Below are positions 1 through 18,880 of a stretch of 32,000 nt of DNA, one piece after another; position 1 is the first letter of the stretch, and each line of letters opens with the position of its first letter. A program made the position numbers and the translations under genes. The stretch is from Candidatus Heimdallarchaeota archaeon. Its GTDB lineage: Archaea; Asgardarchaeota; Heimdallarchaeia; JABLTI01. The stretch covers positions 119-32,118 of the forward strand of contig JAUWKS010000037.1 in the NCBI GenBank assembly GCA_030614005.1. Direction: 5' to 3'. The notes beneath the pieces were generated by a model. That model saw only the letters and a list, made by a program, of their open reading frames with translations. It did not search any database and had not been told where the DNA came from.

Positions 1-83
1 CTCGTGCTACATAAAATTACTTGATCTTCAAGCGTTTATTCTTCTCCATGTCTTATTTGTCCATATTTCATGACAGCAGTTGA

Positions 84-644
84 AGCCCTCGATTCAAAGA
101 ACTATCTGGGGAGATATTTGCAGATGTAGAATTTGATACTTTTCTTCGTGCTTTAAATAAAGTAAATCCATCCAAGATTCGTGTTGAAGCGGATCCAGTA
201 ACCTACTCACTTCATATTATTTTGCGCTATGAAATCGAGAAGGAACTATTCGCTGGAAAACTTTCTTTAGATGACTTGCCAAAGGTTTGGAATCAAAAAA
301 TGAAAGATTATCTGGGAATTGAAATTGAAAATGATGCAGAAGGTGTCTTACAAGATACTCATTGGGCTGGTGGTGGTTTTGGCTACTTCCCTGATTATGC
401 GTTGGGTAATATATATGATGGGCAGCTTCTCTGGAAGATGGAACAGGATATTCCTAATTGGAGAGCTCAAGTTAAAAAAGGTGATAACTCAAAAATCGTA
501 AAATGGATGATTGACCAAGTTCATCAAAAAGGCAATATTCTAGATGCACTCGATTTAATCAAAGAAATTACCGGTAAAGAACTGTCAACAAAATACTTCC
601 TAGATTATTTACAAAACGAATACAAAAAATTGTATAATTTGTAG
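84..644 (+). pseudogene. Carboxypeptidase M32 (thermostable carboxypeptidase 1 family), C-terminal part only
   Basis: The frame of ORF 222..644 is open from nt 84 and reads PRFKELSGEIFADVEFDTFLRALNKVNPSKIRVEADPVTYSLHIILRYEIEK...WNQKMKDYLG...GVLQDTHWAGGGFGYFPDYALG, the M32 C-terminal signatures. In-frame TGA (81-83) and TAA (12-14) lie upstream, and nt 1-83 shows no M32-like text in any + frame. Confidence 0.85.
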
Positions 645-2960: not shown

Positions 2961-3833
2961 ATGTCTGAAAAACAAAAAGAAATTTTGATTGCTGTAAAGG
3001 AAAATGTGGAAAAAATTGAATCTGAACGATATAATTCCGAAGATCCAGTTGTTACTATTGGTAAAAGTGATTCTCATCAAGAAGTAATAGTGAAATTACT
3101 AACATCAGAACGAACTGGTGCACCATTAATACTAGAAAAGGAAACGCTTAACCCAGCAGAAGATTTGGCTAAGGGGAATTTTTCTAAAGGTGTTCGAGCG
3201 TTGAATTCTTGGCAATTTAGAAAAAGTTCTGCTCATTTTACAGAAGCAGCAAACCTTGCCCGCGAACTAGTTTTACAACAAAGAATCAATCTCTATAAAC
3301 AGCTACATCCATTATTGCAATCTGCTGTTTTGACATCACCTGATAAAATAGTAAAAAGTAAAGGAAAATTATTCACCGAAGTTCTTAATTCACTGAAAAA
3401 ATATGATAAATTGTCTGAAGATGAGCAATATTATTATCAAAGGACTATAGATTCTCTTTTTGGTATTGCCGGTTTACTTGTTGCTGGTGATAAAAAAACA
3501 CGCACTCAACAGCTATTTGCAAGATGCACTATTTCTTTAGGTAATCGTGAATATCTCGCAGCTAATATTTGGTTGTATAAAATTTATTTACTGAACAAAA
3601 ATGCATTTGATTCCATAGTTGATAGTGATAAAATTTTTCAAAAAGCACTCAAATCTCTCCAATTATTCGTTGAAGTAGAAACAGGTCTTAAAGGATCTAT
3701 TGAAGATTTGCCAACAATGGCAAGTGCTTTTGATTTACAAACTATTTTTGCTGATCATCTTAAAACTATTTTTGACGTTGAATTCGTTGCTGAAACAAAG
3801 AAAGACTTTAGTTTTCAACAATTTCGTATGTAG
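2961..3833 (+). CDS. Hypothetical helical protein, possibly a degenerate TIGR02710/Csm6-like scaffold
   Basis: Clean 290-aa ORF. Segments ETLNPAEDLAKGNFSKGVRALNSWQFRKSSAHF and QLFARCTISLGNREYLAANIWLYK resemble remembered TIGR02710 patterns, but no HEPN RxxxxH motif is seen. The CDS is well supported; the family call is tentative. Confidence 0.55.
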   Translation: MSEKQKEILIAVKENVEKIESERYNSEDPVVTIGKSDSHQEVIVKLLTSERTGAPLILEKETLNPAEDLAKGNFSKGVRALNSWQFRKSSAHFTEAANLARELVLQQRINLYKQLHPLLQSAVLTSPDKIVKSKGKLFTEVLNSLKKYDKLSEDEQYYYQRTIDSLFGIAGLLVAGDKKTRTQQLFARCTISLGNREYLAANIWLYKIYLLNKNAFDSIVDSDKIFQKALKSLQLFVEVETGLKGSIEDLPTMASAFDLQTIFADHLKTIFDVEFVAETKKDFSFQQFRM

Positions 3834-3850
3834 TATTTGGAGTCGATAGC

Positions 3851-6800
3851 ATGGAACACATCACAAAGAGTCTCGAGATACTCCAAAAAACACCGGGAGA
3901 ACCACAGTTTGTTGATTTTCAAGTTCTTGCTGTTAGGCTGCGGGATGCAGAAAGAGGGTATCACTTAGCTCTACGTATACTTGAACCTGAAACTAGAAAC
4001 CAAATATGCAAAGCAATTATTTATCCGATGGAATGGTACCCAGGACGGTATGACGATCCTTCATTTTCACATTATCACAGTGTTCTTAGATATTGTTATG
4101 CTGGACTCACCTCCGAAGGAAGACCTGCTGAACTGCTGCTACAAGTTATGAAAGCTGTTTGGAAACCTGAAAAACCAAAACCATCTGAAAAATCTACTGG
4201 TACTCATCTAGGTCAATTAGTAATTCTCAAATTTATTATTTCACCTGATTACAATATAACAGGTGGTGAACTCGAGTTAGCTTTTAATTGCCCTGCTAAA
4301 TATTTTTATGAATCATTCCTAGGGTTACAAAGAGCGATTCGTAATGCTCCTACGTCTATTGGATTTGTTAGAGGAAATGCTATTCATAAAGGAATACAAT
4401 ATGCTTCAAATGAATGGGTGCAAAGTGCTGACCCTGTAGCTGCAATGAAATCGTACAATAGAGCAGTTATTGATGAGTGGAGAGATAATTTTGCTGTTTT
4501 ACTTCGCAAAAATTATTTTAGAGGCCCAACAAAAGATTTGAAATTACCTGTTCAAGTAGATTCCATAGTAGTTGATCAAATAGCTGAAAAATTCACTGGT
4601 ATAAAAGAAACGCAACTGTTGAACGAATGTCTATTATTTTCACCTGAAAGAGGTATTTCCGGGAGAGCAGATCAGATCATACTAAAGGAAGATCAAGATG
4701 AACTTTGGGAGATAAAAACAGGGAGTAGATATTTCATTGAATCTGACTATGATCCCTTAACTGGAGTAACTCATCCTGGCGGGATACAAGCATTTGCCTA
4801 TCATGACATCGTGAAAAAAGTGCTAGGACGAGCTCCAAAAGTTTTCATTGAATTTTTTGATGCTGATGCAGGAATGGAGGAGGGTAATCCAGAGATAATT
4901 CCATTGCAAGATCATGCTGTAATAAAGAGGAGAAAAATAGATCTTTCCAACACTCAAAGTGATGAATATCTTGACTTGCTTCTTCAAACAAGAAACATAT
5001 CATTTGCAATTGAATCTGGTTTACTGTCTGGGTATGATCGCTATAAAATAAACAAATTCCTATCAAGAAGATTCATGCCTGCTTTAGGGACAGATTTTAA
5101 CCTTCTTAGCAGCAATTGGAATCGTATTTGCAATTACTGTCCTTCAAATCAACAAGGTATTTGTTCTGATGGTCGAATTCGATTAGATACAGACATCTGG
5201 TTACATTTCCCTCAAGATTTGTATGAATACTGGTCTTGGTATTTCAGACAATTAAGATTTGAATTAAATAATGTTAAAAGACATCTACATCGACTCGCAA
5301 CAACACAAATTTCTGTCCTTGAAGAACAAGGAGTCACTATCTCAGATCTCGAGATGAAAAAATTTGACCCGTACAGATATATTCTCACTTTATCTTCAAA
5401 AAAGAGGATTTTCACCCGAATTCGTGAAGGTGACAGTGTTTTTGTCACTCCTTCCACATTGAAACCGGGAGAAATTTTTAGTGTAGAGGGGAAAGTTGAA
5501 TCTCTCACTACAGATGAAGTGGTCATTAAAACACGCTCTACTTTAAAGTCTCGAGGTAAACAGTCAAAAGAATTTAGGATAGATCAAGTACAAAATGTAA
5601 TTTTTTCCAAATGGCAAACTCGCTCTCTCACTGATTTCCTCTTTGAATCAATGAGGAGAACGAATATTCTAGGTAGAAAGTTATCTAGTAAAGAATTGCC
5701 TAGAACAGTACAGCTTATTATTGGAACCACAAAACCGCGAAAAATTAAACCCGTTAGTAGAAAACGATTACTAAAGAATTTAGACAAATTTAAGGTTGAA
5801 GCGATCGAAAAAGCATTAGGTTTGGAACCAGGTGAATTTCTGTTAGTTCAAGGACCACCCGGAACTGGAAAAACAAGAATGATCTCTCAACTTGCTCGAG
5901 AAATTTTCTCCGAAAAATATCTTCTTCATTCAAAAGATACTAATGAAACGGATTATACTCTTCCAAAACCAGTTCTCATTCTAGCAAATACTCACAGAGC
6001 TGCAGATGAAGTTATTATAAAATTGCGTTCATTTGAAGATTTGAAACCGTATATTGTCAGATTGGAATCTTATTCAAAAAATCATCCTAAAGAAGTTCAA
6101 GAGTTTATTATTCCAAATAGAGTTGAATACTCAGAACACTTTAAAGAAAAAGCAGACCCTAATCTTTTGGTTTCTATTCTTAAGAAAGGCATAGCTATGT
6201 ACAAACAAGCAGGAATCATTGTTGGTACTCTGGGAAGTGTTGGTAATAATCTCTTAAAGGGTTTAAATTTTAATTGGGTAATTATTGATGAAGCTGGGCA
6301 AGCTACTGAGCCTGCTTCACTAGGTGCACTCCGCCATTTATGTCCACCTTCCGATTCAGAAGATGGTTATCCACGAATAGTTTTAGTTGGGGATCACAAT
6401 CAATTACCTCCCGTAGTTTCGGAAGAAACAATTGAACACACTCCACCTGTTCCTAAAGTGCTTCTCAAATCCGGTTTAACGAAAACAGATACGCTCAAGA
6501 CATCACTTTTTGAACGATTGTTCCGAATGTGGAAAGAGAAATCTAACAACGTTGTTATCTTAGCTGATCAATATCGAATGAATGAGGCAATTTCAAGAAT
6601 AATTAAAAATGCTTTTTATCCTAAAATAAACTACGTTCCTGCTAATGATTCTATTGGAAAGCATACTTTGAAGGATTTTTTGGGTGCTTTCACTCCTACA
6701 CGAACGCTAGATCCAAAGAAATTATCAAACCAAATTTTCGATTATAAAATACCTATTGTTTTACTAAACTCGGAAAACGACCCAAATGGTCTGGAAGGAG

Positions 6801-7330
6801 TAGAGGATACTGAAATTCAAACCGAATCTCGTTTTAATATTCGAGAAGCAAAAATAATTGGCTCATTACTAGCTGAATTTCTAATGAATTATTCTGAAGA
6901 GGATCAAATTGTCATAGCAAAACAAATAGGAGTAATTTCTCCCTACCGTCATCAGAATAATTTGATTTATGGTGAATTGCGTACGAAGAAATTCTCTGCT
7001 GCTGTTATTGAGCAGATAAGAGTTGATACCGTTGATAGATATCAGGGTGATGAGCGAGAAATTATCCTCTTGAGTTTAACAAATAGTAACGAACTTAATG
7101 CTATCGGTCAGTTGCATCGCGAATGGCGACGAATGAATGTTTCAATCAGTAGAGCCAAAGCTAAGCTTGTAATCATAGGCAATAAACAAACTTTCATTTC
7201 ACCCAGTTCTGAAAGCAAAGATGCTGAAGCAAAAGAAAAATTCAAGAAAATGTTTGATACGATTGAGGTATTAAAGAACGAAAAATTAGCTTTAGAACTT
7301 CCTACAGCGAAACTATTCACTGATGAATGA
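3851..7330 (+). CDS. Dna2-like nuclease-helicase (Fe-S PD-(D/E)XK nuclease plus SF1B Upf1/Dna2 helicase)
   Basis: Nuclease part: IISPDYNITGGELELAFNCPAK (C147), GNAIHKGIQ, SPERGISGRAD (D274), WEIKTG (E287, K289), QAFAY, and C427-x2-C430-x7-C438. Helicase part: GPPGTGKT, DEAGQ, LVGDHNQLPPV, SLFERL, QYRM, TVDRYQGDE, RRMNVSISRAK. Confidence 0.92.
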   Translation: MEHITKSLEILQKTPGEPQFVDFQVLAVRLRDAERGYHLALRILEPETRNQICKAIIYPMEWYPGRYDDPSFSHYHSVLRYCYAGLTSEGRPAELLLQVMKAVWKPEKPKPSEKSTGTHLGQLVILKFIISPDYNITGGELELAFNCPAKYFYESFLGLQRAIRNAPTSIGFVRGNAIHKGIQYASNEWVQSADPVAAMKSYNRAVIDEWRDNFAVLLRKNYFRGPTKDLKLPVQVDSIVVDQIAEKFTGIKETQLLNECLLFSPERGISGRADQIILKEDQDELWEIKTGSRYFIESDYDPLTGVTHPGGIQAFAYHDIVKKVLGRAPKVFIEFFDADAGMEEGNPEIIPLQDHAVIKRRKIDLSNTQSDEYLDLLLQTRNISFAIESGLLSGYDRYKINKFLSRRFMPALGTDFNLLSSNWNRICNYCPSNQQGICSDGRIRLDTDIWLHFPQDLYEYWSWYFRQLRFELNNVKRHLHRLATTQISVLEEQGVTISDLEMKKFDPYRYILTLSSKKRIFTRIREGDSVFVTPSTLKPGEIFSVEGKVESLTTDEVVIKTRSTLKSRGKQSKEFRIDQVQNVIFSKWQTRSLTDFLFESMRRTNILGRKLSSKELPRTVQLIIGTTKPRKIKPVSRKRLLKNLDKFKVEAIEKALGLEPGEFLLVQGPPGTGKTRMISQLAREIFSEKYLLHSKDTNETDYTLPKPVLILANTHRAADEVIIKLRSFEDLKPYIVRLESYSKNHPKEVQEFIIPNRVEYSEHFKEKADPNLLVSILKKGIAMYKQAGIIVGTLGSVGNNLLKGLNFNWVIIDEAGQATEPASLGALRHLCPPSDSEDGYPRIVLVGDHNQLPPVVSEETIEHTPPVPKVLLKSGLTKTDTLKTSLFERLFRMWKEKSNNVVILADQYRMNEAISRIIKNAFYPKINYVPANDSIGKHTLKDFLGAFTPTRTLDPKKLSNQIFDYKIPIVLLNSENDPNGLEGVEDTEIQTESRFNIREAKIIGSLLAEFLMNYSEEDQIVIAKQIGVISPYRHQNNLIYGELRTKKFSAAVIEQIRVDTVDRYQGDEREIILLSLTNSNELNAIGQLHREWRRMNVSISRAKAKLVIIGNKQTFISPSSESKDAEAKEKFKKMFDTIEVLKNEKLALELPTAKLFTDE

Positions 7331-7353
7331 ACTGAATTAACAAGAGGATATGA

Positions 7354-7890
7354 TTGATTATGTTAACGGCAGAAAAATTACCGGAAATAATAGCTGAGCT
7401 TTTGGCTTTAGAAGAAATTGGATGTACATATGATTTCAAAGAACGCTATGGTGTTGGGTTAAATAGTTTAGAGGTATTAGGCTTAACTAAGCTTATCAAA
7501 ACGCGTATTCCAAAATGTGGTGATCATTGTACAAAATACCGTGATTGTCAATATATACCATTGTTTGAAAAAAGAAAGAGCAAAACAAAATATCGATTAA
7601 CTAAAGAAGGAAAAATTCTAGCTGATTATCTTTCTTCTGATGCTGTCACTAGCGCGAATATCAAATCATTGCTTCAAAAAGAATTCAGTAATTATTCCTT
7701 TGTAGATTTGATTCTGTCTCTTCTGATGGATAACCCCGAATTAGCAATTGAGAAATTAGTTTCAAGCATTTTAGAAACTACCAACTCAACACTATACAGT
7801 ATTCGTACTTCTATTCGAGATATTTTGGATTTACTTGTATCATTAGAGTTACTGGTTATACACGAAGGGAAAATAACCATTTATACTTGA
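7354..7890 (+). CDS. Tandem winged-helix protein with a Cys-rich insertion
   Basis: 178 aa. First wHTH-like unit: LNSLEVLGL...KYRLTKEG, with CGDHCTKYRDC inserted in the wing. Second unit: IRTSIRDILDLLVSLELLVIHEGKI. Starts 23 nt after the helicase stop. Confidence 0.6.
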   Translation: MIMLTAEKLPEIIAELLALEEIGCTYDFKERYGVGLNSLEVLGLTKLIKTRIPKCGDHCTKYRDCQYIPLFEKRKSKTKYRLTKEGKILADYLSSDAVTSANIKSLLQKEFSNYSFVDLILSLLMDNPELAIEKLVSSILETTNSTLYSIRTSIRDILDLLVSLELLVIHEGKITIYT

Positions 7891-8000
7891 AAGAATGATT
7901 TTTAAGTGGTATTTGAGTGATATATTAATTAATTTAGCTGTAAAGAGACAAAGATATTTTATAGTCATAAATCATTCAAATTTAGAGCTTAAATTGTGTT

Positions 8001-10298
8001 GTGCCGAAAATGTCATTGAAAAAAGTAAGTAGTTCATTACTAAGTCAAATTGGTTTCTCAGAACTGGAGCAGCAAGTGTATTTGACTATTCTGGGAATTG
8101 GGAATGCATCCTTGGGTGAAATGTACCTTCAAACAGGAATATCTTTAGAAGATTTGCAAACCGTCGTTGATGAATTATCTGATAGAGGTTATCTTAAAAA
8201 AATAACCGGCAAAATCAACAGATATATTGCTGTCGAACCATTTCTCAAAGGGTTCTTATTTGTTGAAAAGGAATTTCAAAACGACATCATTGGTATTGAA
8301 AATTCTTTAATTAATTCTTTTGATTCTAGTTATGATAAATTATCTCTTAGTATGGATAGTTTCGTAGGATCAATAAGTCCTATTTACGATAAAATAGTAG
8401 AAGAGCTACGGCTTTCAAATGAGAAGCTAAAGATGGAGTTAACAAATTCTATTTATCGTCATTCAGATAAAATATCCAATCTTGCAGAAGATTTTGATGT
8501 CATACTTTCTGAAGGATTCTCTAAAACTTATTTGTCTATTAGTAATGAGCTTTCAAATCTTAGTAATGAAATTAGCGTTATTCTTCGTGAAGAATCCACC
8601 AATGCTTCATCTCGTTTACAGAATTTTGAACAAATTACAAACGAGACACTTTCAAGTCTCATCCAACCATTAAATGATGCAATAATTGAATATAAAGCAT
8701 CTGCACCTGATAAACAAAAAATAATTTTGGATGAAAATAGACACGAAATAGCTACTCTACAAAAGAATATCAAATCAATCACTAAATTGAGTTTGAAAGA
8801 TATTACTACATCGATTAAGGACTTCGAGAAGGAATTTTTAGAGGTGCTCTCTGTAGCTTCAAATGGATATGCTACTGTCATAAAAGATTACAAAACTGTT
8901 ACTCGTACATTAATAGATGAAAAGAAGAAAAAATTAGATGGTGCAGTAGTAATACTAGTTCAATATGTTGGTAAAAATATTGATCAACTTTCAGTGGAAG
9001 CTCATAACCTGAAAGAAAATATTGATGAATTAACCAAAACTGGTTTATTAAAACGACCTCCTCCCCATTTGGTCCAAGAAGCAAAAGAACGTGCTGATAA
9101 AATTGATCGTCTATCCCAAGATATCAAAGGCGCTTATGATGAAACACTTAATACGTATCAGAAGGGCATCATAGAAGGTTTGAACGATTTAATAAAAGCA
9201 AATGACACCTTGTTAACAAAACAACTTACAGATGGAAATAACCGGATTAAAAATCTCAAAATAAAAATTGCTAATAGCTGGACTGCCATTACAAAGAAAT
9301 ATGATCAAGATTTAACGGCAGCTGTTAAAGAAGTGCTTAAGGAGTCCAATCCAAAACTCACAAGTACCTCTAAAGAGGTGTTTAATAATACTCTCAAACA
9401 CATTGAGGATCTAAAGAACAGTATTTCCGCAGTTTTAGCCCCATTAAAGGATGTTATCTTTAAGGATCTTGAAGATTGCATGGAAAACCTCTTTTTGAAT
9501 TCAGCAAAGAGATTGCGATATCACAATGATTCGAATAATAAATCATTAGAAACTATTCGCCATCTAACCGATGATATGAAATTTGTTTTCAAGAATCAAG
9601 TACAAGAAGAATTAAGTAAACCTAAACAAATTGCTTCTGATATGATAGGCGATTATACAAGTACTCTCGACAACTATCTAACCACTCTTAATAGAGACCA
9701 AGGTGCAACTCTCGATACCATTACAACAGCAGCAGAAACTTTTCTCAGTGTTCTGAAGGATTCCTATGCGACTTCGAGCAATGAAATTTCCAATAGATTG
9801 GCTGCAATTATTTACAAGGTAAACGAAACTAAAACATACCTCCAAGAAATCACCAATGCAGTAGATCAAATTCTTCCTATTCCAAAACCACATTCAATTA
9901 TTGTCTATGGCAATCAAAATTCAATGAACACTATTTATGATATGCTACTTCGTACACGATCAACTTGTACCATTGTAGTTCCAACAATAGATCAATATCT
10001 TGTAGAACTTCTTACTAAACAAGTCTCAAAGAGAGTCAGAGTAAGAATATTAGCTGATGTTGACGCATTCAGAGATGAAGCGTTGGTTGCAGCCTTGAAA
10101 GGACAAGGGAACATAACTATTTGGAATTACAATATGAGAGACTTCTTCGCAGTTACCCGTGATGGTGCAGAAGTATTGCTTGCTCCTGTCACTCGAGACG
10201 GAGAGCTAACAAGTTTCGTAACAGAACAAGATGCTTTGGTAAGAGCAATTCAACAAATTATTAATGCTTCTTTCATGGCTCGTTCAAAAGAAGTCTAA
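8001..10298 (+). CDS. TrmB-like regulator (N-terminal wHTH, C-terminal PLD-like/sugar-binding domain) with a long helical insertion
   Basis: N-terminus IGFSELEQQVYLTILGIGNASLGEM...LSDRGYL...RYIAVEP is a TrmB-type wHTH. C-terminus IVYGNQNSMNTIYDML...CTIVVP...RVRVRIL...FFAVTRDGAEVLLAP is TrmB_C-like. Residues ~81-625 are amphipathic helical. Confidence 0.8.
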   Translation: MPKMSLKKVSSSLLSQIGFSELEQQVYLTILGIGNASLGEMYLQTGISLEDLQTVVDELSDRGYLKKITGKINRYIAVEPFLKGFLFVEKEFQNDIIGIENSLINSFDSSYDKLSLSMDSFVGSISPIYDKIVEELRLSNEKLKMELTNSIYRHSDKISNLAEDFDVILSEGFSKTYLSISNELSNLSNEISVILREESTNASSRLQNFEQITNETLSSLIQPLNDAIIEYKASAPDKQKIILDENRHEIATLQKNIKSITKLSLKDITTSIKDFEKEFLEVLSVASNGYATVIKDYKTVTRTLIDEKKKKLDGAVVILVQYVGKNIDQLSVEAHNLKENIDELTKTGLLKRPPPHLVQEAKERADKIDRLSQDIKGAYDETLNTYQKGIIEGLNDLIKANDTLLTKQLTDGNNRIKNLKIKIANSWTAITKKYDQDLTAAVKEVLKESNPKLTSTSKEVFNNTLKHIEDLKNSISAVLAPLKDVIFKDLEDCMENLFLNSAKRLRYHNDSNNKSLETIRHLTDDMKFVFKNQVQEELSKPKQIASDMIGDYTSTLDNYLTTLNRDQGATLDTITTAAETFLSVLKDSYATSSNEISNRLAAIIYKVNETKTYLQEITNAVDQILPIPKPHSIIVYGNQNSMNTIYDMLLRTRSTCTIVVPTIDQYLVELLTKQVSKRVRVRILADVDAFRDEALVAALKGQGNITIWNYNMRDFFAVTRDGAEVLLAPVTRDGELTSFVTEQDALVRAIQQIINASFMARSKEV

Positions 10299-10326: not shown

Positions 10327-11019
10327 TCATTTGAAAATGGTTAACAATCTCTGAATTTCTTTTAACCAATTTGCAATGCTTCTTTGAATAACCTTCTTCG
10401 TCTTTTCAGGTACATGCCACAACTCTATAAGATCAAACTCTCTTTTAGACGTTTCAAACATATTTTTGAGAAGTGCTAGAACAGTTTTGTTCTTTTTCAT
10501 TAATTTACGTGAAATACCGGTTGGTGGAATTGGTTCTTCCTTACCGAAGGATTCCATTATACCCAAAATTCCTAAACAGCTGCTTTCAAGAAAAACATCA
10601 AAAGAATTTGTTAGGGGGATATAAACGCGATAGGTAGGCATAGTTAAGAGGATTAAGGGATTGCCATTTGGATCAAGATTTTTCATATCAAGTAAATAAA
10701 ACGCTTCTTCTTCGTTAGTTGCAAATAAAATAAAACGATTGTCGGGGAGAAGATTAACTTTCTTTTTAGTAAGAATGAGGTTCTCACATGAATTTATTAG
10801 AAGATGTGATGGGTCATCTAAATCATCCAGAAAATACTCGGAATCAATCATTAATCCATTTGTTTGCTCGTAAAAAAGCTTCAAATGATCTGGTAATACC
10901 ATGTCCTTAAAAAATAACAGTTCTTTGATATGAATACGGGTGAGTCCATTGTAAAAAATGACTTCTACTTTTGAATCATCTAAATAATTATCTAGTATCT
11001 GAATTTCTTTCACCAACAA
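10327..11019 (-). CDS. SMI1/KNR4 (SUKH) family protein
   Basis: LPDHLKLFYEQTNGL, FILFATNEEEAFYLLD, GNPLILL and YIPLTNSFDVFLE match the SUKH pattern (LP..Y..F....NG ... FA......Y ... A.SF.EFL). Confidence 0.75.
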   Translation of the reverse strand: MLVKEIQILDNYLDDSKVEVIFYNGLTRIHIKELLFFKDMVLPDHLKLFYEQTNGLMIDSEYFLDDLDDPSHLLINSCENLILTKKKVNLLPDNRFILFATNEEEAFYLLDMKNLDPNGNPLILLTMPTYRVYIPLTNSFDVFLESSCLGILGIMESFGKEEPIPPTGISRKLMKKNKTVLALLKNMFETSKREFDLIELWHVPEKTKKVIQRSIANWLKEIQRLLTIFK

Positions 11020-11094: not shown

Positions 11095-11718
11095 CTACTT
11101 CATTAGTTCTTTCATTGTGTTGTAACCTTTATCGAATGCTTCGATATTTGTTGCAACAACTTTTTCGTTTTTTCTAAAGCGTATATTGAGCGCTTTGATA
11201 AGTGATTCTTTTGTAAGAGGAAAGTTTGGTATGGCAAAGAGAGCTCCAACTAAAACAACATTTTGAGTTCTCGTATCACCAACTTCAGAAGCTAATTTGA
11301 AGGCATCAATTAAGAAAACATTATTAGTAAATTTCTTAATGATAGCAAGAATGTCTTCTGTTTCGGGGTATTTTCCTCCTTTTTTGGCACTCAGGCTAGG
11401 TGGGATGATTTTGTGACTATTCATAATAACGTAACCATCTTTAGGAATTATTTTGCGAATAGCTCGTGCTGTTTCTCCAAGTTCAAAACTTAAGAGAACA
11501 TCTGCATCTCCATCTGCAATTAGAGGACCACTAACAGGTCCAAAGCGAATTTCAGTGTTAACAACACCACCTCTTTGAGCCATACCATGGATTTCACTTT
11601 GCACAACAAAAATATCTTGGACTAGTGCTGAGTTACCTATAAGCATGGCTGCAGTGAGAACACCAGTTCCGCCTACTCCTGCAATTTCAATTTGATATGG
11701 TTTGTCTAATTTAGTCAT
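11095..11718 (-). CDS. iorB: Indolepyruvate:ferredoxin oxidoreductase beta subunit
   Basis: IAGVGGTGVLTA, SEIHGMAQRGGVV, GDADVLLSFELGETAR, NVVLVGAL. Directly downstream of iorA. Start placed at the second ATG (MTKLDK). Confidence 0.92.
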   Translation of the reverse strand: MTKLDKPYQIEIAGVGGTGVLTAAMLIGNSALVQDIFVVQSEIHGMAQRGGVVNTEIRFGPVSGPLIADGDADVLLSFELGETARAIRKIIPKDGYVIMNSHKIIPPSLSAKKGGKYPETEDILAIIKKFTNNVFLIDAFKLASEVGDTRTQNVVLVGALFAIPNFPLTKESLIKALNIRFRKNEKVVATNIEAFDKGYNTMKELMK

Positions 11719-11723
11719 TTTCT

Positions 11724-13586
11724 TCACCTCTTAGTAAAAGCATCGTAGGGGCAAATTATTCTGCAAACACCGCATCCAATGCAAGTTGATTCATCAACAT
11801 GAGCTTTCTTTTTCTCATAATCGAATGTGATTGATGGACAAGCAAAAGTTCGCACACAAGTTCTACATCCTATGCAGATTTCTTCATCTACGAAATACTT
11901 TTCGATTTTCTCTTTTGCTCTTTTTGCTACTCTAGCGTATTCTAAAGCACAGTCTCTTCTTGAGATGACAACAGCTAGTTCTCCACTGTCAATTGCTTTT
12001 CCTATAACTTCTATAGTATGGTCGAGGTCATAGGGATCAACAATCGCCAAATTTTTGATTCCAATTCCTTCGCAAACTTGTTCAATAGTTACAATACCTG
12101 CTGGTTCACCAAACGCCGTTTTACCTAATTCAGGCGTTGGTTGACCACCGGTCATTGCAGTTAGATGATTATCAACTATTACTAAGACAAATTTAGCATT
12201 GTTTACTATAGCATTTACTAAAGCTGGAATGCCTGAGTGGAAGAATGTACTATCTCCTATAACTGGGATAATCAATTGATCGGTTGATTGAGCAAGACCA
12301 TTTGCTATACCAATTGATGAACCCATTGATACCGTTGTGTCAACAGAGCTCAGAGGGGCCATAAATCCGAGAGTATAACATCCGATATCTCCAGGCATTA
12401 TTGGTTTGAGTTGTCGTTTCTTTGCTGCTTTCTTAATTGCAATGAACGTTGCTCTATGTGGACATCCTGGGCAAAGCTCGGGTGGCCTGATTGGTAATTG
12501 CGCGTTAATTTCATCTTGTGATGGTAGGTCTTCCTCATATTCTGCAAGTTTAATGCCCATTACTTTTGCGAAAGCACGTTTCAAAATCAACGGATTTAGT
12601 TCATTTGAAATTGGAATAGCTCCTTCCTTTCTTCCATATATTTTAACTTTGATGCCATTTTCTGCTGCTAAAGCTTTCACCAGTAATTCAAAGTACGGTT
12701 CAACTTCTTCTGCAATGAGGCATTTAGGATTTTCTTTTAATAACTCAATTATTTTTGCTTCCGGAAGAGGATTGCTAAAACCAATCTTGTAAATAGTGGG
12801 ATCAATATCCATTTCTCTTATGGCGTCAATTACGTAAGTGTAAGAAACACCAGAAGTGATAACTAACAAAGGATCTTTTCCTTTGGTAACAACGTTCCAT
12901 TTTGATTTGCATGAGTAGTCCTTCAACTCATCCAATTTTTGTAATAAGAGTGGTTTTGCTTTTCGAGCACTACTGGGTAAACAAACGAATTTTTCAGGAT
13001 TCTTCACGAATTCACCCTTTATTTCTCTCTTTGCAGGGATTTCACCTATTTCAACTGGTCCCCGAGAATGACTTAAACGTGTTGTTGATCGTAAGATAAT
13101 CATTGATTCGTTTTTTTCAGAGAACTCATAGGCATATTTTACCATATCTAAAGCTTCCTGTGGAGTTGAGGGTTCCATACAAAGTGCGTGTGCAGCAAGT
13201 GCATACATTCTTGTATCTTGTTCATTTTGACTTGAATGGAAACTTGGATCATCTGCAATACACATAACAAATCCGCCTTTCATCCCACCGAATAATGCTG
13301 CTGTGAAGAATGGATCTGCTGCAACATTTAGTCCTACATGTTTTGCTACAGTAAAGGATCGTAAACCGCTCCACGCAGCACCTAATGCCACTTCAAAGGC
13401 AATTTTTTCGTTGATTGACCATTCAGCATGCATTCCGGTATCTTTTCCAAATAAAGCAATGGTTTCCATTACTTCTGTTGAAGGAGTACCCGGATACGCA
13501 GCTGCGACATCAACACCAGCTTCTAAGACACCTCTAGCTATGGCTTCATTGCCGCTTAAAAGCATCATAGTTTTTTTATCTGACAA
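11724..13586 (-). CDS. iorA: Indolepyruvate:ferredoxin oxidoreductase alpha subunit
   Basis: LLSGNEAIARG, AYPGTPSTE, KHVGLNVAADP, DDPSFHSSQNEQDTR, RPPELCPGCPHR, GDIGCYTLG, TPP motif IGDSTFFHSG...IVDN, and two C-terminal ferredoxin motifs. Start probably TTG 13586; the ORF track extends to 13619. Confidence 0.95.
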   Translation of the reverse strand: MSDKKTMMLLSGNEAIARGVLEAGVDVAAAYPGTPSTEVMETIALFGKDTGMHAEWSINEKIAFEVALGAAWSGLRSFTVAKHVGLNVAADPFFTAALFGGMKGGFVMCIADDPSFHSSQNEQDTRMYALAAHALCMEPSTPQEALDMVKYAYEFSEKNESMIILRSTTRLSHSRGPVEIGEIPAKREIKGEFVKNPEKFVCLPSSARKAKPLLLQKLDELKDYSCKSKWNVVTKGKDPLLVITSGVSYTYVIDAIREMDIDPTIYKIGFSNPLPEAKIIELLKENPKCLIAEEVEPYFELLVKALAAENGIKVKIYGRKEGAIPISNELNPLILKRAFAKVMGIKLAEYEEDLPSQDEINAQLPIRPPELCPGCPHRATFIAIKKAAKKRQLKPIMPGDIGCYTLGFMAPLSSVDTTVSMGSSIGIANGLAQSTDQLIIPVIGDSTFFHSGIPALVNAIVNNAKFVLVIVDNHLTAMTGGQPTPELGKTAFGEPAGIVTIEQVCEGIGIKNLAIVDPYDLDHTIEVIGKAIDSGELAVVISRRDCALEYARVAKRAKEKIEKYFVDEEICIGCRTCVRTFACPSITFDYEKKKAHVDESTCIGCGVCRIICPYDAFTKR

Positions 13587-13854
13587 TTTTGTTAACCTTC
13601 TGTTTCTTTTTCTATACAAAATAAAAGTCCAACACTATATCTTCTGTTTGTCTTTTCATCAAATTTAGTTGTTGTGACTTTTTTAGTATCTGTTTAATTC
13701 TAAGTAAAACTTCAGTTATACCAAAAATATAAGGTCCGAAGACCCTTTTTAACTTCTTTCTTCTCTCTACTTTTGATAAAGGTTTCCTAGAAATCAAAAG
13801 TTTTTTAATCACTTAATATAAGGACACATTATAAATTTACTTTAGAACGTGTGA

Positions 13855-14916: not shown

Positions 14917-15048
14917 AACACCCTTTTTCCCCTATTTCTGCCCAATGTATTCTCTAGGTACTATCACCATTGATATGAGAAAAATGTCTTGGTAGCACAC
15001 GGGTTTTTAATATTTCAACGATATTTGTATCCATATAAGGTGAGGACA

Positions 15049-16188
15049 ATGGAATCTTTTATCAAAAATATCACTGAAAAAGAGCAAGTACCAAAGCTTT
15101 TTCCAACCGAAGAATCAAAGCATGACTCTCAAGATGTTGATCAAGATTTACGAAGGATTATCGAGGACATCCAGGCGAAAATATTGGTTATAGGTGTCGG
15201 TGGTGCGGGAAATAACGCAGTCACTCGATTAAATCAATCGGGTCTTGTTGGGGCAATTACTCTAACAGCAAATACAGATGCGCAACAATTGCTCTTCTCA
15301 AAGAGTCATAAGAAAATGCTCCTAGGCAGAGAGCTCTGCAGAGGGCTTGGTGCAGGTAATGATCCACAAATTGGCGCAGAAGCTGCAGATGAATCAAGTG
15401 AAACCTTGAAAGGCATTCTAACTCAAGTTGATATGGTCTTTATTGTTTGTGGACTTGGTGGGGGAACCGGAACTGGTGCTGCCCCTGTTATTGCCCGTTT
15501 AGCCAAAAATTTAGGTGTACTAACTGTATCAATATGCACTCTTCCATTTGATGTTGAAGGGAAGATGAAAGCTTTACATGCAAAAGAAGGTTTGAGACGT
15601 TTATATGAAAGTAGTGACACTACAATTGTAGTTCCAAATGAAAAATTAATAGAAATAGTCCCTGAACTTTCATTAAAAGAAGCTTTCTTGGTTGCTGATG
15701 AAATACTCATTCGTGCAGTCACAGGTTTAACAGAACTCATTAATCGTCCAGGAGATGTTAATGTTGATTTCGCAGATGTTCGTCGAGTTCTTGGTGAAGG
15801 CGGAGCAGCAATAATTGGCCTCGGGGAATCTAGCAGTGTAGATAATAGAGCTCAAGAAGCTGTTGAAGATGCTTTGAACAATCCATTACTCGAAGTTGAT
15901 ATTCGCACAGCGAAAAGCGTTTTGCTAAATATTACTGGTGGTAAAGATCTCAATCTGAAGCAAACCGAAGAAGTAATTCGCGCGGTTACAGATCAGCTTA
16001 GTTCAGATATCATCGTTAAATTCGGTGTTTTGATTGATCCCGACCTTCAAGGAACAATTAGAGCAACAATTGTAGTTTCTGGAGTAAGAAGCCCCTATAT
16101 TCTTTCAAATTTACAGGATTCGATTTCTTCAGATATGGATTATGATTTAGAAGACGATCTCGACTTAGGGCTCGAAACATTTGAATAG
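15049..16188 (+). CDS. ftsZ: Cell division protein FtsZ (FtsZ1-type context)
   Basis: VIGVGGAGNNA, NTDAQQL, GLGAGNDP, tubulin signature GGGTGTGAAP, T7 loop NVDFADV. ATG 15049 is preceded by GGTGAGG. Confidence 0.97.
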   Translation: MESFIKNITEKEQVPKLFPTEESKHDSQDVDQDLRRIIEDIQAKILVIGVGGAGNNAVTRLNQSGLVGAITLTANTDAQQLLFSKSHKKMLLGRELCRGLGAGNDPQIGAEAADESSETLKGILTQVDMVFIVCGLGGGTGTGAAPVIARLAKNLGVLTVSICTLPFDVEGKMKALHAKEGLRRLYESSDTTIVVPNEKLIEIVPELSLKEAFLVADEILIRAVTGLTELINRPGDVNVDFADVRRVLGEGGAAIIGLGESSSVDNRAQEAVEDALNNPLLEVDIRTAKSVLLNITGGKDLNLKQTEEVIRAVTDQLSSDIIVKFGVLIDPDLQGTIRATIVVSGVRSPYILSNLQDSISSDMDYDLEDDLDLGLETFE

Positions 16189-18319: not shown

Positions 18320-18880
18320 ATGACTATCTGGACTTTACGTGCGACCATAGGTCAAGAAAAAGCAATTGCCAAACATATCCACTCTAAAATAGTGAACAAT
18401 AAAATAGATGTTTGGTCTCTCCTAATACCTGAAGCTTTAAGAGGTTATATTTTCATTGAATCAGATTCTATTCAAAGTATTGATAGTGCTGTTCAAGGTA
18501 TCCCTCATGTAAGAAATAAGGTTGTTGGTGAAGTAGAAATAATTGAGCTGGAAAGTTTCTTAGTTCCCAAGCCAACAATTGAAGGACTTCATATTAACGA
18601 TCTCATTGAGATAATTAGTGGTCCATTCAAAGGTAGCCGTGCAAAGATAAACAGAATAGATGTAGGGCGAGAAGAAGTTACTGTTGAATTATTGGATTCG
18701 CAAATTCCGATTCCCATTAAATTACATTCTGATTTCTGCAAAGTAATTGAAAGTGCAGCTGGTGATGAAGCAGAAGAAGATCTTATGCCTGCTAAATCTG
18801 ATGATGATTCTGATAGGAAAGGTGATGGAAAGAAAGGTGAAAAGGACGACGATGTTTTCACTGAACTCTTTAAATCTTAG
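18320..18880 (+). CDS. spt5: Transcription elongation factor Spt5 (NusG) with an acidic C-terminal tail
   Basis: NGN domain (ATIGQEK, LRGYIFIE, GIPHVR) and KOW (DLIEIISGPFKGSRAKINRID..REEVTVEL), followed by about 42 extra residues. Confidence 0.95.
   Translation: MTIWTLRATIGQEKAIAKHIHSKIVNNKIDVWSLLIPEALRGYIFIESDSIQSIDSAVQGIPHVRNKVVGEVEIIELESFLVPKPTIEGLHINDLIEIISGPFKGSRAKINRIDVGREEVTVELLDSQIPIPIKLHSDFCKVIESAAGDEAEEDLMPAKSDDDSDRKGDGKKGEKDDDVFTELFKS

Follow-up and report, generated by a model that had tools for sequence, protein, structure and literature searches.

TrmB, the sugar-responsive regulator of Thermococcus and Pyrococcus (PDB 3qph and 2f5t), and TrmBL2, a chromatin protein of the Thermococcales (TK0471/PF0496; PDB 5bpd, 5box, 5bpi and 5bqt), share one domain order. 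In both, a winged helix-turn-helix (wHTH) domain is followed by a single dimerisation helix, about 35 residues long in TrmBL2, and by a C-terminal domain, and TrmBL2 oligomerises beyond the dimer, forming tetramers (PMC4877046). The gene described here lies within a 32,000-nucleotide (nt) stretch of DNA (hereafter the window) from Candidatus Heimdallarchaeota archaeon (GenBank assembly GCA_030614005.1, contig JAUWKS010000037.1, positions 119 to 32,118). Its product carries the same two domains as TrmBL2, in the same order, whereas the ~35-residue dimerisation helix gives way to a helical rod of ~545 residues that most likely folds back on itself. With this rod, the TrmB/TrmBL2 family gains a new architectural variant. 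The rod protein occurs in Asgard archaea, to which eukaryotes are more closely related than to any other known prokaryotes and in which the organisation of the cell interior and of chromatin is an open question.

The open reading frame (ORF) reported in an earlier, letters-only reading of this DNA (the first-pass annotation), 8001..10298 on the (+) strand, is present in the ORF list and in the translation, and encodes 765 amino acids (aa) when read from GTG 8001. A word-indexed homologue search returned 47 relatives, of which 43 are full-length. All 43 comprise 762 aa, start at an ATG equivalent to 8010 and are 54–92% identical to the product of the window; their alignment has 762 columns and is free of insertions and deletions (indels), except for one sequence lacking 2 residues. 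Across five orthologous loci (the window and four others, with 54–72% protein identity), the ATG followed by TCA is kept, with GTG replacing ATG in one of them, and the upstream GTG 8001 is not. Since conservation favours ATG 8010 over the GTG upstream of it, the gene was assigned to 8010..10298 (+), with the stop codon at 10296–10298, and the 762-aa numbering is used below unless stated otherwise. The landmarks of the first-pass annotation were correctly recognised, but it assumed a start at the GTG, so all of its residue numbers are 3 too high.

Residues 1–80 (8010..8249, +) constitute a TrmB-type wHTH. The Pfam family PF01978 (TrmB wHTH) matches residues 14–80 in the 765-aa numbering (32.2 bits, cut-off 25.6), in agreement with the earlier placement of the domain end at P80. 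A profile built from the wHTH of 72 diverse relatives matches the solved structures of TrmB (3qph, E 6e-13) and TrmBL2 (E 1e-11), and residues 2–115 of the structural model align to TrmBL2 5bpd_A with a Z-score (Z) of 9.1. At the other end of the protein, the linker L-P-I-P-K-P and a phospholipase D (PLD)-like domain of the TrmB/TrmBL2 type occupy residues 623–762 (9876..10295, +). Pfam gave no match for these C-terminal 140 residues; a profile of the C-domain from 77 relatives aligned over its full length with the TrmBL2 counterpart (E 0.19 only), with a D-x-EE motif in common. The AlphaFold model of residues 618–762, computed from an alignment of 77 diverse relatives, has a predicted local distance difference test score (pLDDT) of 94.8. 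It matches TrmB 2f5t (Z 17.1, root mean square deviation (rmsd) 2.1 over 129 aa) and TrmB 3qph (Z 16.0), and its best Foldseek match is TrmBL2 5bpd (template modelling score (TM) 0.76, E 3e-9). The predicted start of a PLD-like domain at LPIPKP (625–630 in the 765-aa numbering) is borne out by this TrmB-type fold. The PLD nucleases NucT (6ehi, Z 15.3) and Nuc (1bys, Z 13.9) rank after TrmB and TrmBL2, and the PLD fold of Zucchini is matched with Z 12.2.

The catalytic motif H-x-K-x4-D was not found in the C-domain sequence, in which the single histidine, H628, lacks the subsequent x-K. Family-wide conservation in this domain falls on the columns R648, P658, R717, D718 and E721, and a stand-alone relative (P0072) reaches the cut-off of PF11495. 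The sugar-binding C-terminal subdomain, a trait of TrmB and TrmBL1, is absent, as the protein ends at residue 762 right after the PLD-like domain; TrmBL2 likewise has no such subdomain. The ends of the rod protein match the wHTH and the N-subdomain of the effector domain of TrmB, whereas the sugar-binding barrel and the short coiled-coil linker of that regulator are missing, and the NCBIfam equivalog for TrmB scores only 23.8 bits against a cut-off of 600. Where TrmB and TrmBL2 have one short amphipathic helix for dimerisation, the two domains are here separated by ~545 helical residues that are interrupted at the centre. The two ends of the rod protein are the two domains of TrmBL2, with an inactive PLD-like part.

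The rod consists of an N-arm (residues 81–344; 8250..9041, +) and a C-arm (residues 353–622; 9066..9875, +), the latter predicted to return to the head. In the AlphaFold model of the whole protein, built on the alignment of 43 sequences, helices span residues 75–343, 352–497 and 506–619, and residues 344–351 are non-helical. The hydrophobic periodicity of residues 85–620 is 3.67 (11/3), where the power is about eight times as high as at 3.5. In the N-arm, which is modelled as one continuous helix, the period is 3.66–3.68 and a single unbroken register extends over 24 repeats of 11 residues (hendecads), with a hydrophobic occupancy of 0.82, 0.73 and 0.81 at frame positions 2, 5 and 9, respectively; the period of the C-arm is 3.68. 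The strong hydrophobic stripe is narrow (3 positions per 11, ~65 degrees) and the rod as a whole is net acidic (−2.4 per 100 residues). The same periodicity was found in 77 relatives with rods of 220 to 1550 residues, the median period being 3.66. A search for internal repeats revealed weak offsets only, at 11, 22, 44 and 48, and no clear duplication. The rod is therefore of the non-supercoiled hendecad type, unlike the interrupted heptads of SMC and Rad50. No transmembrane segment or signal was evident in the translation or among the Pfam matches. The latter included weak hits to Apolipoprotein A1/A4/E (E 4.5e-5, 23.7 bits, cut-off 90) and to ApoLp-III, which mirror the 11-residue repeat only.

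The break between the arms coincides with the loop G-L-L-K-R-P-P-P (residues 345–352; 9042..9065, +), designated here the apex. Its consensus in the orthologues is K-R-P-D-P: G345, P350 and P352 are conserved, and the PPP is peculiar to the window sequence. The central turn that had been proposed as a PPP hinge holds as a region, but of the motif itself only P-x-P is kept. The model superposes on long antiparallel hairpins, every alignment being centred at residues 342–348. Residues 191–498 match the chemoreceptor hairpin 2ch7 (Z 12.4, 298 of 309 aa aligned), residues 187–503 the Rad50 coiled coil, residues 237–450 the antifreeze protein Maxi (rmsd 4.4), residues 306–383 the CHMP4B hairpin (rmsd 2.5) and residues 296–388 the arm of seryl-tRNA synthetase; PrgA was also among the hairpin matches. 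Structure matches spanning residues 83..611 and 1..621 place the proximal ends of the arms side by side near the wHTH. A hairpin was thus obtained, as the first-pass annotation had anticipated, rather than stacked bundles or an open rod, and it aligned to 2ch7, Rad50 and CHMP4B. These judgements refer to VIA structure alignments of the model and not to the whole-model Foldseek search, in which SMC5/6, Rad50, cohesin and dynein stalks ranked highest with TM of 0.09–0.20 and rmsd of tens of angstroms, values too weak to be used alone.

Conservation along the rod has the same centre. Column entropy is mirror-symmetric with r = 0.86 at i + j = 693–694, the best parallel shift gives 0.22, and the mirror value was reached in 0 of 500 permutations of 11-residue blocks (null maximum: mean 0.42, standard deviation 0.10). 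The variable patch 103–124 mirrors the variable patch 565–586, and conserved helix-perturbing residues lie opposite one another (P220/P478 and P124/G565). Covariation between the arms, measured as mutual information with average product correction, is maximal at i + j = 694–696 for ~24 effective sequences, and 12 of the top 100 inter-arm pairs fall within 4 of i + j = 693.5, compared with 3.4% of all pairs. The centre given by mirror conservation, covariation and the ends of the AlphaFold helices is ~347 (~350 in the 765-aa numbering), 3–4 residues before the middle proline. In the 765-aa numbering P80, KRPPP (351–355) and LPIPKP (625–630) lie where they had been reported, and the distances 354 − 80 and 628 − 354 both equal 274. 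The symmetry claimed from them is real, but its exactness hangs on the landmarks chosen.

Across the family, the two arms change length in lockstep. Six relatives (P0087, P0090, P0065, P0131, P0151 and P0097) share the tip motif R-G-S-A-[FW]-K-A-L and have N-arms of 257, 301, 308, 319, 363 and 407 residues and C-arms of 276, 320, 327, 338, 382 and 424 residues. The C-arm exceeds the N-arm by 19 residues in five of them and by 17 in one (r 0.9999, slope 0.99), and the corresponding difference in the window protein is ~16. The expectation that homologues alter both arms together is borne out by this difference, which stays at 17–19 as the arms vary by 150 residues. The steps in arm length are mostly of 44 residues, i.e. 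four hendecads per arm, which, alongside the weak offsets of 22, 44 and 48 in the self-comparison of the window rod, suggests that rods grow by matched 44-residue modules. In addition, the 323-aa protein P0059 corresponds to the 853-aa P0065 without residues ~125–655, a deletion symmetric about the midpoint with flanks that are 64–72% identical at the protein level. Conclusions on arm length are drawn from the shared tip motif and from this close pair only. An arm-to-arm profile alignment among distant relatives was left unused, as hendecads align in many registers and gave contradictory, overlapping matches, and P0205 (391 aa) proved to be no more than a C-terminal fragment of P0098.

The midpoint itself also stands out in relatives. 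In eleven paralogues of ~670 aa it is the main indel hot spot, including a 25-residue insertion, and among 69 relatives helix breakers are enriched at the predicted apex (17 above the 90th percentile, 7 expected, p = 2e-4); the strongest Pro/Gly cluster in 90 relatives was not reliably located at the midpoint. A basic-aromatic tip motif is found at the apex-equivalent point in distant relatives. When the N-arm (81–346) and the C-arm (352–622) were submitted as separate chains, the complex-prediction score was 0.09 against a mark of 0.32, a result that counts neither for nor against pairing. Taken together, five independent lines, namely the model, mirror conservation, covariation, lockstep and the clustering of length changes at the midpoint, support the antiparallel arrangement first put forward, with arms of ~270 residues, a turn at ~350 (765-aa numbering) and the wHTH and PLD-like domains reunited. 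As judged from the model and the alignments, the rod most likely folds back on itself over ~40 nm, which would put the two globular domains together at the same end.

How this rod relates to known fold-back proteins was considered next to the claim of an SMC/Rad50-like geometry. In SMC, Rad50, MukB and JetC, distant helices of one chain pair antiparallel, so that the globular parts at the two termini meet at one end of a rod measuring tens of nanometres. This fold-back is shared: SMC and Rad50 coiled coils align to model residues 187–503, and an intramolecular antiparallel coiled coil is indicated by the model, mirror conservation, covariation and lockstep, with which an intermolecular variant is also compatible. 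A further likeness is a possible elbow at 182–201/479–504. The ATPase head, the hinge or zinc hook and the heptads of those proteins are, however, not shared. Searches of Pfam and NCBIfam found no P-loop, SMC_N or ABC ATPase head in the rod protein, which begins with a wHTH and finishes with a PLD-like domain; at the apex, an 8-residue loop without cysteine stands where a hinge domain or CxxC zinc hook would be; and the uninterrupted hendecad (3.67) differs from the interrupted heptads (3.5) of SMC and Rad50. No sequence homology to the arms of SMC, Rad50, MukB or JetC was detected. The rod protein resembles a passive fold-back rod more than an SMC-type motor.

The best structural match to the rod is the chemoreceptor signalling domain 2ch7, a long hairpin that dimerises into a four-helix bundle. 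Length within the chemoreceptor family reportedly varies by matched insertions in both arms (Alexander and Zhulin 2007), which resembles the lockstep of the arms described above. Chemoreceptors are, on the other hand, built of heptads and possess a kinase-binding tip, methylation sites and a membrane anchor, none of which is present in the rod protein, and the match is one of geometry, not of homology. The lowest rmsd among the long alignments (4.4 Å over 196 residues) was obtained with the hyperactive type I antifreeze protein Maxi (4ke2), a long untwisted hairpin. Maxi likewise consists of 11-residue repeats, and it forms a four-helix bundle by pairing. This Ala/Thr-rich fish protein is nevertheless unrelated and has no terminal domains, and the likeness is limited to geometry and periodicity. 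The rod protein represents a different build for a long fold-back rod, with unbroken 11-residue repeats, no ATPase and a head taken from a family of chromatin proteins and regulators.

The explanation that we favour is that ~545 residues of hendecad helix have taken the place of the ~35-residue dimerisation helix of TrmB/TrmBL2, between a winged helix and an inactive PLD-like domain. The helix would run out for ~265 residues, turn at the loop G345...P350-x-P352 and then return, giving an antiparallel rod of ~40 nm, straight and without supercoiling, that has the globular domains at one end and terminates in a basic tip. Such a protein, transcribed from a promoter of its own, may act as a rigid spacer or tether of fixed length: its head, probably a dimer like that of TrmB, would attach to DNA or to a partner protein by way of the invariant basic wing and the neck, and its tip would contact a second target. 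We regard the structural part of this explanation as highly probable and the role of spacer or tether as tentative; architecture, family and role taken together are, on balance, slightly favoured.

Several observations weigh against it. The confidence of the whole-protein AlphaFold model is modest (pLDDT 65.8, predicted TM 0.28), and its low-confidence stretches 182–201 and 479–504 leave the path of the rod either straight or elbowed. The recognition helix of the window protein carries five acidic and no basic residues; the R-x-Y common to TrmB and TrmBL2 at the start of this helix is absent, the aligned positions being D and Q; and no other part of the wHTH is as poorly conserved among the orthologues. 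The wHTH of the window protein has a net charge of −1, and the family median is −2. Finally, mirror conservation, covariation and lockstep would equally arise from an extended antiparallel homodimer. The R-x-Y columns of the 72 relatives are mixed and mostly acidic. On the other side of the head, the wing R59–Y72 is invariant in the orthogroup (R59, K63, G67, K68, N70, R71 and Y72), as are the first 25 residues of the N-arm. Basic wing residues in winged helices are elements of the kind that contact the DNA backbone, and anchoring to DNA through the wing is possible. The wHTH domains of TrmB and TrmBL2 have a net charge of ~+1 (counted from the profile alignment), close to that of the rod protein, and therefore charge alone does not settle the matter. 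On these sequence features, DNA binding by the rod protein appears doubtful; the acidic recognition helix weakens the assumption of it in the first-pass annotation, which had put forward bridging of DNA, polymerisation and contact with membranes as conceivable activities. The two low-confidence stretches (8553–8612 and 9444–9521 in the window) roughly face each other in the hairpin and lie inside the best-conserved regions of the rod (125–212 and 477–564); in the model they could form an elbow or a partner-binding joint.

In the homodimer just mentioned, each chain would be a single helix of ~80 nm with a central kink, and head-to-tail pairs would form a two-headed bridge, each end of which would combine the wHTH of one chain with the PLD-like domain of its partner. 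Pairing of i with 693 − i between two molecules accounts for the three sequence signals as well as pairing within one does, and an AlphaFold model of a monomer cannot discriminate between them. However, a conserved loop of helix breakers (G, P-x-P) occupies the centre, where AlphaFold leaves 8 residues non-helical, and in relatives (P0132 and P0056) this point takes insertions of 25–30 Pro/Gly-rich residues, which suits the tip of a hairpin better. This conserved, insertion-tolerant Gly/Pro loop argues for a true turn, and we consider the extended homodimer improbable. Equally improbable is an ordinary TrmB-type regulator, with the wHTH on specific operators, the rod as a sensory or oligomerisation module and nearby genes (e.g. 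the upstream Dna2-like cassette described below) under its control. The true TrmB-family wHTH and the TrmB-type C-domain agree with it, as does the gene order Dna2-like/~175-aa/762-aa protein, kept in 5/5 loci down to 54% identity. Nevertheless, the recognition helix is acidic, poorly conserved in the orthogroup and without R-x-Y, no sugar-binding subdomain exists, synteny over 20 kb makes adjacency weak evidence and distant members lie in unrelated contexts. A regulator would also have no need of 1–7 paralogues per genome with strict rod lengths.

A lipid-binding protein of the apolipoprotein/perilipin type, whose amphipathic 11-mer helices would open onto lipid or membrane and for which the hairpin would be a lipid-free storage form, could explain the weak matches to Apolipoprotein A1/A4/E and ApoLp-III, the period of 3.67, equal to that of lipid-binding 11-mer repeats, and the basic, aromatic tip. 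Those Pfam scores are, however, far under the curated cut-offs, the hydrophobic stripe is narrow and the rod net acidic, and inter-arm covariation and exact lockstep show that pairing of the arms is the selected state; this alternative is very improbable. Unlikely, in our judgement, is also a scaffold that does not bind DNA, in which the head would serve self-association only and the rods would assemble head to head or tip to head into a lattice or filament in the cell interior. It would fit the acidic, variable recognition helix, the concentration of conservation in the wing, neck and C-domain, the oligomerisation of TrmBL2 beyond the dimer (PMC4877046) and the several fixed-length paralogues per genome. 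Against it stand the invariant basic wing (K63, K64, K68 and R71), of the kind contacting the DNA backbone, and the wHTH charge (−1), near enough to that of TrmB/TrmBL2 for DNA binding to stay compatible; moreover, no evidence of polymerisation was obtained. The fold-back rod itself invites a more specific and speculative extension, namely that Asgard archaea possess ATP-independent molecular rulers so far found only in them, rigid hendecad hairpins with a TrmBL2-type head on chromatin and a basic-aromatic tip holding membrane, cytoskeleton or other DNA at a set distance. Their lengths would change by equal increments in the two arms, usually of 44 residues, with several fixed lengths per genome of roughly 20–115 nm. 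This extension seems unlikely at present. If true, the closest relatives of eukaryotes would have a prokaryotic scaffold of the nucleoid-to-periphery or nucleoid-bridging kind, and if the head binds DNA, the family would represent a new class of architectural chromatin protein.

The rod protein belongs to a large family. Matches to the C-domain profile were found in 146 of the 151 sampled genomes of the window's phylum (70 of the 72 high-quality ones), with 1–7 per genome, in open frames of up to 2092 aa, and it is unlikely that a multi-copy family so distributed is incidental. Family rods range from ~100 to >1500 residues; their lengths are constant to the residue among orthologues and change symmetrically in both arms across the family. 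The organism names of the relatives are Heimdall-, Thor-, Gerd-, Hod-, Hel-, Atabey- and Promethearchaeota, with the single exception of Zixibacteria. This exception is a 762-aa orthologue (P0009) labelled in NCBI as 'candidate division Zixibacteria bacterium' and 74% identical to Heimdallarchaeal proteins, and it is probably a mis-binned contig. In the atlas clusters, the long forms are from Promethearchaeota, and short TrmB-like forms occur also in other archaea and in bacteria; so far, the rod family has been seen only in Asgard archaea. A separate Heimdallarchaeal orthogroup of 765–767 aa is likewise fixed in length. The genome from which the window derives contains at least three further matches: a 646-aa paralogue on contig 4 (L008 1501–3441), a C-domain match on contig 24 (66976–67389) within a 758-aa open frame and a TrmB-wHTH match on contig 4 (57554–57772) within a 791-aa open frame.

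The present annotations of family genes are misleading: they read 'sugar-specific transcriptional regulator TrmB', 'gas vesicle protein' or just 'hypothetical'. A description of the family was not found in the open-access literature with the term combinations TrmB, coiled-coil and Asgard/Lokiarchaeota, or hendecad and archaea. The listed sequencing runs with matching DNA are metagenomes of marine sediment and cold seeps, with no RNA run among them.

A candidate promoter precedes the rod-protein gene. In the 119-nt gap before ATG, the sole intergenic block conserved across the five orthologous loci is a purine-rich stretch resembling a transcription factor B recognition element (BRE), followed by the TATA-like ATATTTTAT (7954–7962); the whole spans 7947..7962 (+). 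The TATA-like sequence lies ~50 nt upstream of ATG 8010, and its core ATTTTAT (7956–7962) is invariant in all five loci. Given this position and the resemblance to the archaeal TATA consensus, the block most likely serves as the gene's own predicted promoter, and the rod gene therefore probably has a promoter of its own.

The upstream neighbours form a cassette at 2961–7890 (+), which encodes a 290-aa protein, a 1159-aa Dna2-like nuclease-helicase with PD-(D/E)XK and superfamily 1 (SF1) helicase domains and a 178-aa protein; it is conserved in those orthologous loci that reach that far. The distance of 110 nt between the 178-aa ORF (stop at 7890) and the ORF start at 8001, on which the first-pass annotation had remarked, is correct, but the linkage is restricted to one syntenic clade. 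Within this clade, the order of the Dna2-like nuclease-helicase, a ~175-aa protein and the 762-aa protein is kept in 5/5 orthologous loci (the window and four others). The wider neighbourhood is likewise syntenic wherever the contigs reach, from peptidase M32 through FtsZ, SecE, Spt5 and ATP synthase, and because the whole ~20-kb region is syntenic, adjacency to the Dna2-like cassette is weak functional evidence. Distant members of the family adjoin unrelated housekeeping genes. In one of the orthologous loci (L001, 6248–9352), the Dna2-like gene was called as three ORFs of 462, 216 and 330 aa, a split that could result from frameshifts, a broken gene or assembly errors.

Downstream, a convergent gene at 10327–11019 (−), 28 nt past the stop of the rod gene, encodes a SUKH/SMI1-KNR4 protein (PF09346, E 1e-6). 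Its position is kept in the closer loci L001 and L002, and the distant loci L013 and L014 have there a gene of ~195 aa without a Pfam match. After the SUKH gene or its similar-sized counterpart, iorBA follows on the opposite strand in the orthologous loci. Pfam assignments of the downstream housekeeping genes come from these loci and not from the ORFs of the window. In the window, the subunits of the indolepyruvate/2-oxoacid ferredoxin oxidoreductase lie at 11095–13619 (−) in conserved order, and the genes at 14989–16188 (+) and 18320–18880 (+) probably encode, by synteny, FtsZ and Spt5, respectively.

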